Of a stretch of DNA of 38,114 nucleotides, positions 29,681 to 34,009 are shown piece after piece. The stretch is from a virus (taxonomy: Duplodnaviria > Caudoviricetes): IMG/VR virus record IMGVR_UViG_3300009095_000007, positions 1 to 38,114 of that record; one strand, 5' to 3'. Each line of letters begins with the position of its first letter. The first letter of the stretch is position 1. The translations under genes were made by a program, and so were the position numbers. The notes below the pieces were generated by a model. That model searched no databases and had not been told where the DNA came from. It worked only from the letters and a program-made list of their open reading frames with translations.

Positions 29681-32381
29681 ATGTCTATTACAAACACAGG
29701 AAACTTAGGACCTATGATCCTCCAGTCGCTTGCGCCTGCGATGTTATACGTGCCTACGCCTTCCTTTAACTACATTTTGGTGTGTGACAAGGTGTCCATG
29801 CCAACTAATGGTGGAACGACTTGTCGTTTCATGAGACCTAGGGCGCTTACGCCTCCTACGGTTCAACTTGGAAATTCTGGGATCGATGAAAACCTATGGT
29901 GCGTCGATGTAAAACCTTCTCTGATTGACTTGGAACTCCTCGATGAGGACAACAGGGCGCAAGCGAAAGCAGCGTGAACGACTAAGTGAGAAGGGGCCGA
30001 AAGGTCATGCGATAGTCTGAGCTCATGGGTAACTATGAGAGAGAAATCCGAAGAGGTTTCCCCGCCTTATAAGCTGCGGGTCGAAAAAGTAACAGAGTGC
30101 CACCAGCCCAAGTGCCACAGCGCGATATCATCGATTAAGGCGCAAATGGCGTTCTTCGGTACGGGATGTATCATAAATGAACAAGTGATACTCCAGGATC
30201 AAGAGGGTTATAGGTTTATAGCAGCTTAACTTGTATTTGTGAGTAAATAGTACACCGTGATATAATTCCCGTCAAAAGGAGTTTTTCATGCAGGAAGAAA
30301 TAGATATGGCATATGCGGCAGGAATATTAGACGGAGACGGGAGTTTCTCAATAATGAAAGCTCATGGGAAGTATTACCCATGCATTCAGTTGAGTAATGC
30401 TCATGAGGGCATGTCTAAGTGGTTACATGAAAAATTTGGCGGCTCTTTAAGACTTAAAAAGCCTCAGAAAGACCACTATAAGACTCTTTATGTATGGTCA
30501 GTGAGGAGCCTTGAGGGATGTAGGCGTCTTATTGAGCAGATTTCTCCCCATATCGTCTTAAAAACGCTTCAGGCTAAGTGTATGTTGGATTTTGTTGGCA
30601 AAAGAAGTGAAGGTTGTTTTTGTGAAATAGATGGAGAACGGTTTTCGTTTCGGATGAAGGAGTTAAATCGTACCATTTTATTAGGCAGCGACAGTCTCAA
30701 TCAACAGTCCATAAAAACTACAGATTGTCCTAAGTTTTGGTCATATGTGGCAGGGATTATGGACACTGAGGGATCTTTTTCGATTAAAAAAGAAAAGCCT
30801 CACTCAGGAAGTGTGTCTACGAGATACAACCCCATTATCCAGCTAACTATGGTTCCTTCGGCCGTTTTAAACTTTATTCGTGCAAACTGTTCGTTGGGGA
30901 GTTTTTGCATCCCTAAAGCAAAATGTACGACCAAAGGTTATGCGTATAAAATGTCTATAGGTAGCAAGGATGAATGCATCCATTTCCTTCATAAGGTAAA
31001 AAACTATTTGCGATTTAAAAAGGGCCAGCTTTTCACTTTGTTAAACTTCTGCGAGAATTATTGCTCAGTGAGGTTTTGCAGAGGAGGAACTCCTAGAGAA
31101 GTTTTAGATTTCCGTGAAGAGATGTACCAACAAATGCGGCTATTAAATAAATAACACGCCCTCTTAGCATAGCTAAAATGGTGTTAGCGTGGGTCTCTGA
31201 AAGACTTGCGGTAGCTATGCGCCAGGCTTGAGATAGTAGGCCTGGATAAACTAGATCTGATTGACTTGGAAGGCTAAACCGAAAGGCATGCCGACAGGGC
31301 GGAACTCGCAAGAGACCGTGAGAGACTGAGTGATCTGGAGCCGAAAGGCTATGCGACAGTCCGAACCATCCAACGAAAGGGGTGGAGATAGGCAGAAATG
31401 ACCTATCCACATCGAAAGATGGGGTAACAGATTGGAAGATCTAATTTTGAGAGACTACATCGTATCCGCAGCTAGCCAAATTAACGCTAGTGGTGGATCC
31501 AACGGTAGACGAAAGGTTGTTGCCGTTGTTAAATCTTCTCTGATAGACTTGAAACTCGCAGCGTAAAGACGGCGACAACAAGGGGCAAGATTATGACTGA
31601 TTGGTTGGTAGAAAATTTAAATGCGCGGGAAAGGCTGATGTATAGAATCGCCATCACAAACGCCAAAGATCCCGAATTAGTGGATAATTCATTCTATCAT
31701 GCCTTCGGAAGGGATCAGCCTGAACGTAGCAAGCGAGAAGACCCCGAAAGGGGATGCGGTGCTCTGAACACTAGTGAAAGCTAGTGAGCTAGGTGCAATA
31801 GGCCTGGCCGCCTAGATGTTTGTAGTCTAGGTCACAAAAGTAACAGATTAATGGACAACCCAACCAACCTAGGAGTCTCTGACTTCTCGTTGGTTGCAGC
31901 AACACTCGATACTAACAACGCCTATAAGTTTATGGCGGGTATCGAAGGTGAAGATAAGTTTGGAACAGGCCCTGTACGCTCTGCATATTTTATGCTTAGC
32001 TCTACAGAGCTTCAAACTGATTTTGATGGTCTCACTGGCTCAGGATTCATTAGCCAATGGAACTATCCTACAAACGCATCTGCGCTTCCATCAGAGTACG
32101 GTACTGTTTATAACATCCGTATCCTGGCAAGCTCAGAAGCACCAGTTTCTAGAAGTAGCTCTGCTAACTCTAGAGACGTGTATTATAACACAGTAGTTGG
32201 TAAGCAAGCGGTAACGCACATTAACCAAGACGGGTACAGTATGAACCTCATTTATAGAGATCCATACTACTCCGGCATGCGCGCGCAAAACGCGACGCTA
32301 GCGGTTAAATTTGCGCAAGCGCAGGCGATTACTCAAGATACTGCGATCCGAAACCTACTCTGCACACGCAGCAGCAACTAA
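29681..32381 (+). CDS. Major capsid protein (N4-gp56-like), 319 aa after splicing: join(29681-29887,30100-30135,30140-30208,31181-31228,31435-31506,31854-32381)
   Basis: The joined exons read ...QLGNSGID|PPAQVPQRDIID|AQMAFFGTGCIINEQVILQDQEG|VLAWVSERLAVAMRQA|EDLILRDYIVSAASQINASGGSNG|DNPTNLG...GEDKFGTGPVRSAY... with no stop. Every junction is phase 0, follows a T and removes a segment ending in G. Confidence 0.88.
29888..30099 (+). ncRNA. Group I intron 1 (212 nt, complete core, no ORF)
   Basis: P1 AUCGAU/GUCGAU with U.G; P10 UGGUG/CACCA; P3 CCUUCUC/GAGAAGG; P7 GACUA(29980)/UAGUC(30013); P8 GGCC-GAAA-GGUC; P9 hairpins; terminal G. Confidence 0.92.
30136..30139 (+). other. 4-nt intervening sequence TAAG (candidate satellite micro-intron)
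   Basis: Creates an in-frame stop and a frameshift. Removal restores DIID|AQMAFF, and the ligated junction pairs with the intron 1 IGS over 11 bp. Confidence 0.65.
30258..30281 (+). promoter_or_regulatory. Extended -10 promoter (TGATATAAT) and RBS (AAGGAG) for the endonuclease
   Basis: TGnTATAAT at 30258-30266; AAGGAG at 30276-30281; ATG at 30288. Confidence 0.65.
30288..31154 (+). CDS. Double-motif LAGLIDADG homing endonuclease
   Basis: AYAAGILDGDGSF and SYVAGIMDTEGSF motifs in an intact 288-aa ORF. Confidence 0.93.
   Translation: MQEEIDMAYAAGILDGDGSFSIMKAHGKYYPCIQLSNAHEGMSKWLHEKFGGSLRLKKPQKDHYKTLYVWSVRSLEGCRRLIEQISPHIVLKTLQAKCMLDFVGKRSEGCFCEIDGERFSFRMKELNRTILLGSDSLNQQSIKTTDCPKFWSYVAGIMDTEGSFSIKKEKPHSGSVSTRYNPIIQLTMVPSAVLNFIRANCSLGSFCIPKAKCTTKGYAYKMSIGSKDECIHFLHKVKNYLRFKKGQLFTLLNFCENYCSVRFCRGGTPREVLDFREEMYQQMRLLNK
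31229..31434 (+). ncRNA. Group I intron 3 (206 nt, complete core)
   Basis: P1 CCAGGCU/GGCCUGG with U.G; P3 CUAGAUC/GAUCUGG; P7 GACUG(31324)/CAGUC(31357), covarying with intron 1; shares CUGAUUGACUUGGAA and the GUAACAGA..G end with intron 1. Confidence 0.92.
31507..31853 (+). ncRNA. Group I intron 4 (347 nt; about 120-nt insertion in P6; atypical P7)
   Basis: P1 CAACGGU/GCCGUUG; P10 GGUUGUU/GACAACC; P3 UCUUCUC/GAGAAGA; P8 CCCC-GAAA-GGGG; ends GUAACAGAUUAAUG. Confidence 0.88.
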
Positions 32382-32392
32382 GGAGGCGTATC

Positions 32393-33505
32393 ATGACTGA
32401 GTATTCAAAAATCGCTCGAGGTACATTTACCTCTACTGGAGCTGCAAAGGCTATTTACTTGCCTTTTCAGCCAAATATTATCCGTATGACAAACTATACA
32501 GCAGCGGCAACACCTGCACAAAACGGGTGCCCTTTTGCTAATTGGGATGTCGGTATGGGCCAAGGTGGCGGAGTGATGCAAATCTTCAACGCTACTCCTG
32601 TTCTAACTACTGATAATATTACAACCAACGGTTTTAGCACTTTCAGAGCTGGTCTTGACTTCAACTTTGGAGCTCAAATCCAGATCTCTGGAATCACTAA
32701 AGCCTCCCCTGCTGTTGTAACTACAGCTTCGGCTCACGGTTATTCAACAGGTGATGTGGTGCTATTCCAAGGTCTTGCACAATCTAGCACAACTGGTATG
32801 CAACAGATCGCAGGAATTCCTTTCACAATTACTGTGACAGGCTCTACTACATTCACTATCCCTTGGAACACAAACCAGTCTAACTACACAGCTCTGTCCG
32901 GATCTCCTACAGGCGCATACGTGAAAAAGGTTCTTTATCCTTTTCTCTATGCTCCTCAAGGATCTGTGGTAAGTGCGGTGACAACTGGTACAACAACTAC
33001 AATTGACACAGCGATGGCGCATAACCTCGTTGTTGGTCAAGAAGTGGCGTTTCGTATTCCAAGTTCATGGGGAATGACACAGTTGAACTCTCTACCTAAC
33101 ACCACAATTCCAGGATCTCCGATCTATGGATATGTGACAGCAGTAACAGATTACAACACTGTCATCGTGAACATTGACTCCTCTAGCTACACAGCTTTCA
33201 ACAGTAACCAAACTTTTGCAAGCGTAGCAGCCGGTCTCAGTTTCCCTATGATCGTTCCTGTAGGCGATGTAAACTCAGGTGGCGTGGCTTATAGCGGCGG
33301 CAACCTGTACCCTTCTCCTTACACAATCCCAGCAGCTGCTCAGGTACCGTCTATCAACGGCCCTGGCATCTTGGGATGCTTCTTTAACAACACTCGTCAA
33401 GGGTTTGTTATCGGAGCTGGAACAGCTGTAACTTTAACCTCAGCAGTTCTCGTCGGTGCAAACTCAGATGTAATTTTCTGGGAAGCAATGCTTACGGATA
33501 TGTAG
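32393..33505 (+). CDS. Virion structural/decoration protein with two FCCH-like beta domains
   Basis: ISGITKASPAVVTTASAHGYSTGDVV and AHNLVVGQEV motifs; AAGGAGG RBS directly after the capsid gene. Confidence 0.7.
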   Translation: MTEYSKIARGTFTSTGAAKAIYLPFQPNIIRMTNYTAAATPAQNGCPFANWDVGMGQGGGVMQIFNATPVLTTDNITTNGFSTFRAGLDFNFGAQIQISGITKASPAVVTTASAHGYSTGDVVLFQGLAQSSTTGMQQIAGIPFTITVTGSTTFTIPWNTNQSNYTALSGSPTGAYVKKVLYPFLYAPQGSVVSAVTTGTTTTIDTAMAHNLVVGQEVAFRIPSSWGMTQLNSLPNTTIPGSPIYGYVTAVTDYNTVIVNIDSSSYTAFNSNQTFASVAAGLSFPMIVPVGDVNSGGVAYSGGNLYPSPYTIPAAAQVPSINGPGILGCFFNNTRQGFVIGAGTAVTLTSAVLVGANSDVIFWEAMLTDM

Positions 33506-33577: not shown

Positions 33578-34009
33578 ATGACAAGTCCTCTATTCACAGG
33601 CCCTCAAGCCCTCTACCGCAACGTTCCAATCCACACGGAATATTACAATCCCCAAGCAGCGGTTATTTCTTCCATCACTCCTGTCTCACAGACAGCAACA
33701 ACCGTCGTAACAGCCACTGATAACTACTACACAGTGGGGACAGTCGTACGTTTTGTGATTGTGAAGAATGTGGGCATGCAGGAGCTGAACCAAGCGCAGG
33801 CTCTTGTGACTAGCATTACTAGCTCTACTGAATTTACCGTACATGCGGATGCAACCACCATGACCGCATTTAATTCTGCTGGCAACACTAAACAGGATTC
33901 CATGGTTCTCCCTATAGGGGATATCAACTCGGGTCAAATAAATTCTAGCGGTAGAATCAACAATACGCTATATATCAATGGAAGTTTTATTAACGTATCC
34001 CCAGGGTAA
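33578..34009 (+). CDS. Structural protein related to the second domain of 32393-33505
   Basis: VRFVI...GMQELN...LPIGDINSG parallels VAFRI...GMTQLN...VPVGDVNSG. Confidence 0.65.
   Translation: MTSPLFTGPQALYRNVPIHTEYYNPQAAVISSITPVSQTATTVVTATDNYYTVGTVVRFVIVKNVGMQELNQAQALVTSITSSTEFTVHADATTMTAFNSAGNTKQDSMVLPIGDINSGQINSSGRINNTLYINGSFINVSPG

Follow-up and report, generated by a model that had tools for sequence, protein, structure and literature searches.

Predicted excision of a 4-nt insert from phage capsid mRNA by the guide of a neighbouring group I intron

Results and discussion

A frame-breaking micro-insert in a major capsid gene

The major capsid gene of IMG/VR virus record IMGVR_UViG_3300009095_000007 contains a 4-nt insert, TAAG, that breaks its reading frame. 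The record is complete, with terminal repeats, and is analysed here over its full length of 38,114 nt ("the window"). From comparison with related phages, it is likely that TAAG is removed from the RNA by intron 1 of the same gene, a group I intron that would use its own guide sequence a second time in a natural form of trans excision-splicing (TES). To our knowledge, group I introns are regarded as removing only themselves; the excision or insertion of bases in other stretches of RNA belongs to laboratory-built tools for RNA repair.

Portal, terminase, helicase and tail genes in the window are those of a tailed phage. The interrupted gene (29681-32381, + strand) encodes a major capsid/head protein (phrog_1357), and related proteins are annotated as "N4-gp56 family major capsid protein". 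Five inserts interrupt it (Table 1): when all five are taken out, the product is stop-free, 319 amino acids (aa) in length and 92% identical, without gaps, to an uninterrupted relative, whereas translation ends after residue 81 if TAAG is left in place. Sites are named here by codon number in the capsid profile (window residue number minus three): I66 is intron 1, site 78 is that of TAAG, site 91 lies just before 30179, and s101 is the insert at 30209-31180. A first-pass annotation had placed TAAG at 30136-30139 behind the second of two ATCGAT motifs and described a guide at 29897-29909 that pairs with both junctions; all of these statements check out, as does the restoration of the capsid frame by removal of TAAG.

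TAAG is a real insert. A Logan contig (38,021 nt, depth 33.7), which is a separate assembly, matches positions 30040-30300 base for base; it may derive from the source sample and is not independent confirmation. Since other G-ended inserts occupy the same codon in 12 further lineages, an assembly or sequencing error is extremely unlikely.

Micro-inserts in related phages

Loci were aligned to a nucleotide profile built from 35 intact capsid genes, with insertions of any length permitted. In a non-redundant set of 116 genes, an insert at site 78 is present in all 13 that have I66 and in none of the 103 that lack it. The inserts of these 13 lineages are G (five), AG (three), TG (two), TAAG, TTAG and TGAG; each is preceded by ATCGAT and has a G at its end, and their length is never a multiple of three. 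Several of the 13 genes came from a scan for the insert pattern itself, the unbiased searches being those for the last exon, exon 1, the intron end and the guide. I66 is present in five of the 80 loci found with the last exon (three distinct phages) and in one of the 80 found with exon 1, and every one of these has the insert. In IMG/VR, a scan for the insert returned 11 contigs, a separate scan for the intron 3' end plus exon 2 returned the identical 11, and a scan for the guide only returned the same 11 plus two unrelated chance matches. A metagenome scan (20 of 64 parts) yielded 119 loci, of which 114 are chance matches and five are capsid genes, all with intron 1 and the insert. Capsid genes were absent from the 120 loci that matched a loose pattern in named genomes (13 of 64 parts), and there was no match among cultured phages.

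The insert goes with intron 1 and not with the neighbouring endonuclease, because five genes that have the same endonuclease cassette with a different upstream intron (I75) lack it. The sequence ATCGAT precedes site 78 in 13/13 I66 genes compared to 24/103 others, a contrast that is inflated by cassette kinship. The 12 long I66 genes are scattered on the capsid tree and are 70-81% identical, no more alike than random pairs (74.4% compared to 74.5%). Near the cassette their identity is 85% against a background of 80%, suggesting that a single cassette has been spread by homing.

The differing lengths also bear on translational recoding, in which ribosomes would skip or frameshift past the insert with the RNA unaltered. 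Runs of 6-7 T lie a few codons further on in several relatives, and savior indels are known to be recoded (PMC5009743). However, ribosomes would have to shift by 1, 2 or 4 bases at one and the same place, whether or not a stop codon is present, which argues against recoding; there is no T run in the window; and the invariant ATCGAT, the terminal G and the tie to intron 1 would all be unexplained. Recoding is therefore very unlikely.

Across inserts of 1, 2 and 4 nt, a preceding U and a final G are the signature of group I splicing. TAAG has both, but lacks a guide or core of its own. With no pairing element it is neither a group I intron nor a small intron of the PaSSU type (see below): it is a substrate. 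The first-pass annotation had regarded it as a maximally reduced intron and had proposed to look in homologous genes for either a full intron or varying micro-inserts at this site. The latter were found, and only beside intron 1; the former was not, as no insert longer than 4 nt occurs at site 78 in the 116 genes, and the reduced-intron origin is unsupported. Its emphasis on the stop codon, and on a likeness to the UAA that begins the T4 td intron, concerned incidental features, as in relatives the same role falls to G, AG, TG or TTAG.

Intron 1 and its guide

Judged by its structure, intron 1 is a group I intron, and self-splicing is predicted. In the 12 homologues compared, a U.G pair is found at the 5' splice site (exon U, guide G in P1) in every case. 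Pairing is kept in 96-100% of cells of P1, P3, P4, P5, P6 and P8, where both-side changes are frequent; such changes affect 6/7 pairs of P3, and P4 and P6 behave likewise. P7 (29980-29984 with 30013-30017) is paired in 60/60 cells, all 12 homologues included, with two compensatory variants, and P10 to the intron's own 3' exon (+2 to +5) is paired in 47/48. Rfam group I models at E <= 1 did not match intron 1; all three group I introns of the window were missed by these models.

The guide (TGGTGCGTCGATG) forms 7+4 contiguous pairs with the rejoined micro-site, CAUCGAU-GCGC, with G.U at the cut site and at +3, and 6+5 pairs with intron 1's own junction, where +1 is mismatched. At the rejoined site 78, all 120 cells (10 pairs, 12 sequences) are paired, the +3 pair being C-G in five sequences, U-G in four and U-A in three; slid registers of the same structure are 17-49% paired. 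The first four P10 positions distinguish the two states of the RNA: 0-3 are paired at unedited junctions and 4/4 at rejoined ones. Site 78 is the second full guide match (P1 of at least 6 pairs, P10 4/4) for 13/13 I66 introns, whereas the second full matches of 76 other core introns number 11 and are scattered. Position +3 carries A or G in 13/13 I66 genes compared to 47/103 others; here, as in the ATCGAT before the site, synonymous choices suit the guide. Sequence features that TES calls for are found here: one guide gives P1 with U.G at the cut as well as P10 to the downstream exon, and both the segment and the ribozyme have G as their last base. Spacing also appears to allow it: omega-G is preceded by a 5-nt spacer in 67/92 core introns and by one of 6-9 nt in 21/92, and given this variation the 3' G could apparently be displaced by 1-4 nt. 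The proposal that one guide serves both sites, with intron 1 removing TAAG, has come through comparison among relatives, in which the distribution of the insert is as expected.

As a separate observation, profile codon 176 of one relative (L043) is a third perfect P1 match to its guide; it is exonic, has no insert, and may be an off-target site.

Proposed mechanism

In the proposed mechanism, intron 1 would self-splice first and retain a free 3'-terminal G. Its guide would then shift 36 nt onto the second AUCGAU, and the terminal G would cleave after the U, taking on UAAG together with the downstream RNA. The G of UAAG would next move into the G-binding site and the guide would pair with GCGC, upon which the exons would be joined; UAAG would be left on the ribozyme tail at the end. 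An 8-bp pairing between an arm of intron 1 and the downstream core-less intron (s101) would keep the ribozyme near the site. We modestly favour this terminal-G route, for which the missing-G pattern of the single-G relatives (below) is indirect support, over a cut by free GTP, which would serve TAAG equally well yet would leave a moved G unexplained.

An alternative is that another catalyst excises the insert from the RNA, either a downstream group I intron or a nuclease and ligase of phage or host. Proteins often help group I splicing, and a downstream core intron is present in 12/12 genes with the insert that can be read past exon 3. However, these downstream introns differ (profile codons 113, 117 and 119) and site 78 is the second match for none of them; only the guide of intron 1 matches it, and the rule of a preceding U and a final G suits ribozyme chemistry. 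Another catalyst is thus unlikely.

Several points weigh against excision by intron 1. The 13 lineages share one mobile cassette, and the association of insert and intron may reflect one origin spread by homing; the 13 cases are therefore not independent origins, though long-diverged genes have kept the arrangement. In 11/12 homologues the own exon of intron 1 is likewise paired with the guide at +3, so that variation at +3 is not specific to the micro-site. The mismatch at +1 of the own exon is frequent (27/76 other introns) and lends weak support, and P10 at the micro-site has only 4 pairs. Engineered excision has yields of 47-68% in vitro (PMC2532722), and in-cell excision of longer segments is reported to be low (PMC6155759); such modest yields would weigh on the expression of a major capsid protein whose gene is interrupted five times. 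Finally, skipping of exon 2 is also in frame, giving a protein of 307 aa, and may be a side product.

Coding selection and alternative products

The last of these points could be taken further: exon 1 might be joined straight to exon 3, removing a 252-nt intron and costing the capsid protein 12 residues. Pairing between the guide and exon 3 is good, and the first-pass annotation had named such a join (29887 to 30140) as the product that would speak against it. However, 10 of the 12 codons of exon 2 (PPAQVPQRDIID) vary among the 13 lineages and every change is synonymous, a 12-residue loss is seen in 0/162 proteins, and the missing G of the single-G lineages would be unexplained. With the middle exon under coding selection, the join is not the functional product, and we consider this alternative highly improbable.

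The same selection extends downstream. Of the next 13 codons, 11 vary among 12 lineages (L264, interrupted there by another insert, is left out of this count) with no residue change. Both anchors are present in 162 of 234 database proteins, of which 161 have the same spacing across the region. Synonymous change in both flanking exons and the kept spacing argue against exon skipping, a shifted frame and dead genes. The last of these would mean that the phages are decaying or dependent on a helper, and all of them are known from uncultured assemblies; but exon identity among lineages is 70-81% with intact frames and synonymous divergence, and there are complete genomes with terminal repeats. That the capsid genes are dead thus has very little to recommend it.

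No full-length database protein among the 234 is identical to a predicted spliced product, the best identities being 90-95% over 11 queries. One NCBI capsid protein (P0128, from a 2,425-nt contig) lacks exactly the 13 residues between sites 78 and 91; this could be a deletion between near-repeats or the trace of a mis-joined RNA.

A second frame change in the single-G relatives

In each of the five lineages whose insert is a single G, a G is absent 39 nt further on, where a glutamate codon begins (equivalent to window position 30179), and a scan of IMG/VR for this deletion returned six contigs, exactly the single-G ones. The extra and the missing G together restore the overall frame, yet an unedited reading meets TAG or TAA at the deletion. 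Four codons vary between sites 78 and 91: all are synonymous in the capsid frame and residue-changing in the unedited one. Two complete single-G genomes have one capsid gene each. The stop in the unedited frame, the synonymous codons and the single capsid gene argue that a base is removed at site 78 and another supplied at site 91. The window gene itself needs no site-91 step. On the intron tree, which is based on a short alignment, single-G lineages are not grouped together, and the tree favours no order among G, NG and TNAG inserts. The sequences that lack the G are L038, L043-L045, L075, L090 and L232.

Reassignment of the stop codon in single-G forms was considered and rejected: one form has TAA in the unedited frame and also ends its capsid gene with TAA, and at all four variable codons synonymous change is confined to the capsid frame.

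At site 91, 5/5 single-G lineages have CAUCAAU, giving 6/7 guide pairs with one A.C mismatch; of the first six P10 positions, two are paired without the G and 3-4 with it. CAUCAAU is found there in 0/7 of the other I66 genes read at this site, and ATCAAT in 18/103 genes without I66. The guide match is weak, ranking 5th-11th among 116-285 U sites. On balance we lean slightly towards the simplest reading, a ribozyme that picks up the G on its 3' end at site 78 and returns it at site 91.

The core-less insert, its endonuclease and a possible tether

Against a profile of 42 core introns, s101 scores zero in 19/19 genes. It is preceded by U and ends in G; in 19/19 homologues a guide of its own lies close to the 3' end and varies along with the 3' exon. 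Its open reading frame (ORF; 30288-31154) matches Pfam LAGLIDADG_1. A complete intron is present in every gene with a core-less insert, so that such inserts lie near one and would borrow a core only; the micro-insert, unlike these, would borrow guide as well as core. Core-less inserts with the same ends occur at three sites (101, 85 and 88-89) and are either 29-93 nt in length or, with a LAGLIDADG ORF, approximately 950-990 nt; those at sites 85 and 88-89 are found in L004, L011, L012, L025, L074 and others.

The first 25 nt of s101 can form 6-9 Watson-Crick pairs with the 3' region of I66 in 12/12 genes; in one of these, a different intron pairs with the s101 start over one base more than I66 does. 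In the I75 genes (L005, L039, L443, L477 and L478), the arm and its s101 partner change together in three variants. A permutation test of pairing energies did not prefer the own partner (p = 0.54), but 9/12 genes share the arm sequence and the arm window was too wide; as this test is uninformative, the case for the pairing rests on exact complementarity and the I75 variants. From these we infer a tether that would keep sites 78, 91 and 101 within reach of the upstream ribozyme. Both this pairing to the core-less intron at 30209 and the missing-G site in relatives go beyond the first-pass annotation.

Wherever the s101 endonuclease ORF is intact, the gene is interrupted at codons 75-78 (15/15), by I75 in five cases and by the micro-insert in ten; where s101 is only 30-49 nt long, none of five genes is. 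Two genes with a decayed s101 both keep I66 and the insert. The window endonuclease is 68-70% identical to those of the I75 cassettes. As interruption at codons 75-78 tracks the intact endonuclease, the data suggest that the micro-insert, like I75, may block a candidate target of the cassette endonuclease. The insert probably persists because loss of intron 1 would be lethal, and possibly also because it shields the gene from this enzyme. A wider reading combines these elements: intron 1 would be one multi-substrate ribozyme that edits mRNA by self-splicing, deletion of 1-4 nt, re-insertion of G, and docking and splicing of s101, with the insert providing both indispensability and a shield. 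We put this forward tentatively, being nearly evenly divided about it and leaning a little against.

Comparison with known systems

Self-splicing introns with mobile endonucleases provide one parallel: reportedly, the psbA intron of S-PM2 homes together with a free-standing endonuclease (collaborative homing), and T4 intronless homing is a further example. In homing of this kind, an ORF-less intron is accompanied by an endonuclease encoded elsewhere, whose recognition site is reported to be disrupted in carriers, as is proposed here. Unlike in S-PM2 and T4 homing, the proposed interruption consists of 1-4 nt that would be taken out at the RNA level, and the endonuclease target is predicted.

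For the excision step the nearest relative is TES, in which exon-less group I ribozymes of Pneumocystis, Tetrahymena and Candida bind a substrate via P1 and P10 and cut out a short G-ended segment (PMC2532722, PMC6155759). Ribozymes that are excised introns remove a single G in vitro through their 3' G (PMC2532722), and single-base TES also works in E. coli (PMC6155759). Binding through P1 and P10, the 3' G and segments down to one G are common to TES and the activity proposed for intron 1. The reactions described in PMC2532722 and PMC6155759 are non-native and engineered, whereas here the substrate is encoded by the genome in an essential gene and varies among lineages; also unlike engineered TES substrates, it sits 36 nt from the intron's own site. 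The reverse of TES, trans insertion-splicing (TIS), in which a ribozyme charged with a short 3' insert places it in a target RNA (PMC6155759), is the reaction needed for the missing G of the single-G relatives; TIS has been carried out in vitro with a pre-charged ribozyme, whereas here the charge would come from excision on the same mRNA.

Two other systems are less close. PaSSU of Phialophora belongs to the small degenerate group I introns of fungal small subunit (SSU) rDNA, which are 56-81 nt in length, have their own P1, P7 and P10, and are reported to splice in vitro (PMC3160393). Like PaSSU, TAAG is a very short interruption of group I type, but it is without any pairing element. In placozoan cox1, a one-base discrepancy between gene and protein is explained by group I splicing of a single-base micro-exon (PMC5436844); that base is a true exon between two introns, whereas here bases are removed from, or missing within, an exon. 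The available parts of PMC5871332, PMC11835236 and PMC8393795 contain nothing closer to the micro-insert system. No case of natural TES was found in the literature searched, whose scope excluded most subscription papers and all supplements. The chemistry itself is known.

If intron 1 does act in this way, it would offer a natural case on an abundant mRNA under selection, with 13 sequence variants to learn from, and its single-G form would amount to insertion-deletion RNA editing by a ribozyme alone, free of protein. A selfish intron could then turn essential and act at more than one place, as is often assumed in accounts of how trans-acting splicing arose, and one-base "frameshifts" in phage assemblies could be genuine.

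Organization of the capsid gene and its surroundings

The features of the interrupted gene are listed in Table 1.

Table 1. Exons, inserts and pairing elements of the capsid gene in the window
Feature	Position	Strand	Remarks
Capsid exon 1, 69 codons	29681..29887	+	Ends ATCGAT
Intron 1 (I66), compact ORF-less group I intron, 212 nt, preceded by U and ending in G	29888..30099	+	omega-G = 30099
Internal guide TGGTGCGTCGATG, wobble G 29903	29897..29909	+	Fits exon 1/2 junction and rejoined micro-site
Arm in 3' region of intron 1	30070..30077	+	Complementary to 30221-30228, start of core-less intron
Capsid exon 2, 12 codons, PPAQVPQRDIID	30100..30135	+	Ends ATCGAT
Micro-insert TAAG	30136..30139	+	Lacks a guide and a core; relatives have G, AG, TG, TTAG or TGAG
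Capsid exon 3, 23 codons	30140..30208	+	Contains G 30179, absent from DNA of single-G relatives
Core-less insert s101, 972 nt, preceded by U and ending in G	30209..31180	+	LAGLIDADG ORF 30288-31154; own guide 31153-31165
Capsid exon 4	31181..31228	+	Profile alignment
Group I intron, 206 nt	31229..31434	+	Profile alignment
Capsid exon 5	31435..31506	+	Profile alignment
Group I intron, 347 nt	31507..31853	+	Profile alignment
Capsid exon 6, through stop codon	31854..32381	+	-

A 63-aa ORF within the last capsid intron (31593-31784) has no Pfam or PHROG match. Across the 116 relatives, group I introns occupy approximately 25 different sites in this capsid gene, clustered between profile codons 60 and 141. 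Four more distant capsid genes (L479, L480, L484 and L496) are accompanied by related endonucleases and have several inserts beyond the resolution of the profile. The two genes 3' of the capsid gene (32393-33505 and 33578-34009) both match Pfam E1_FCCH, and the first of these also matches a major tail protein family.

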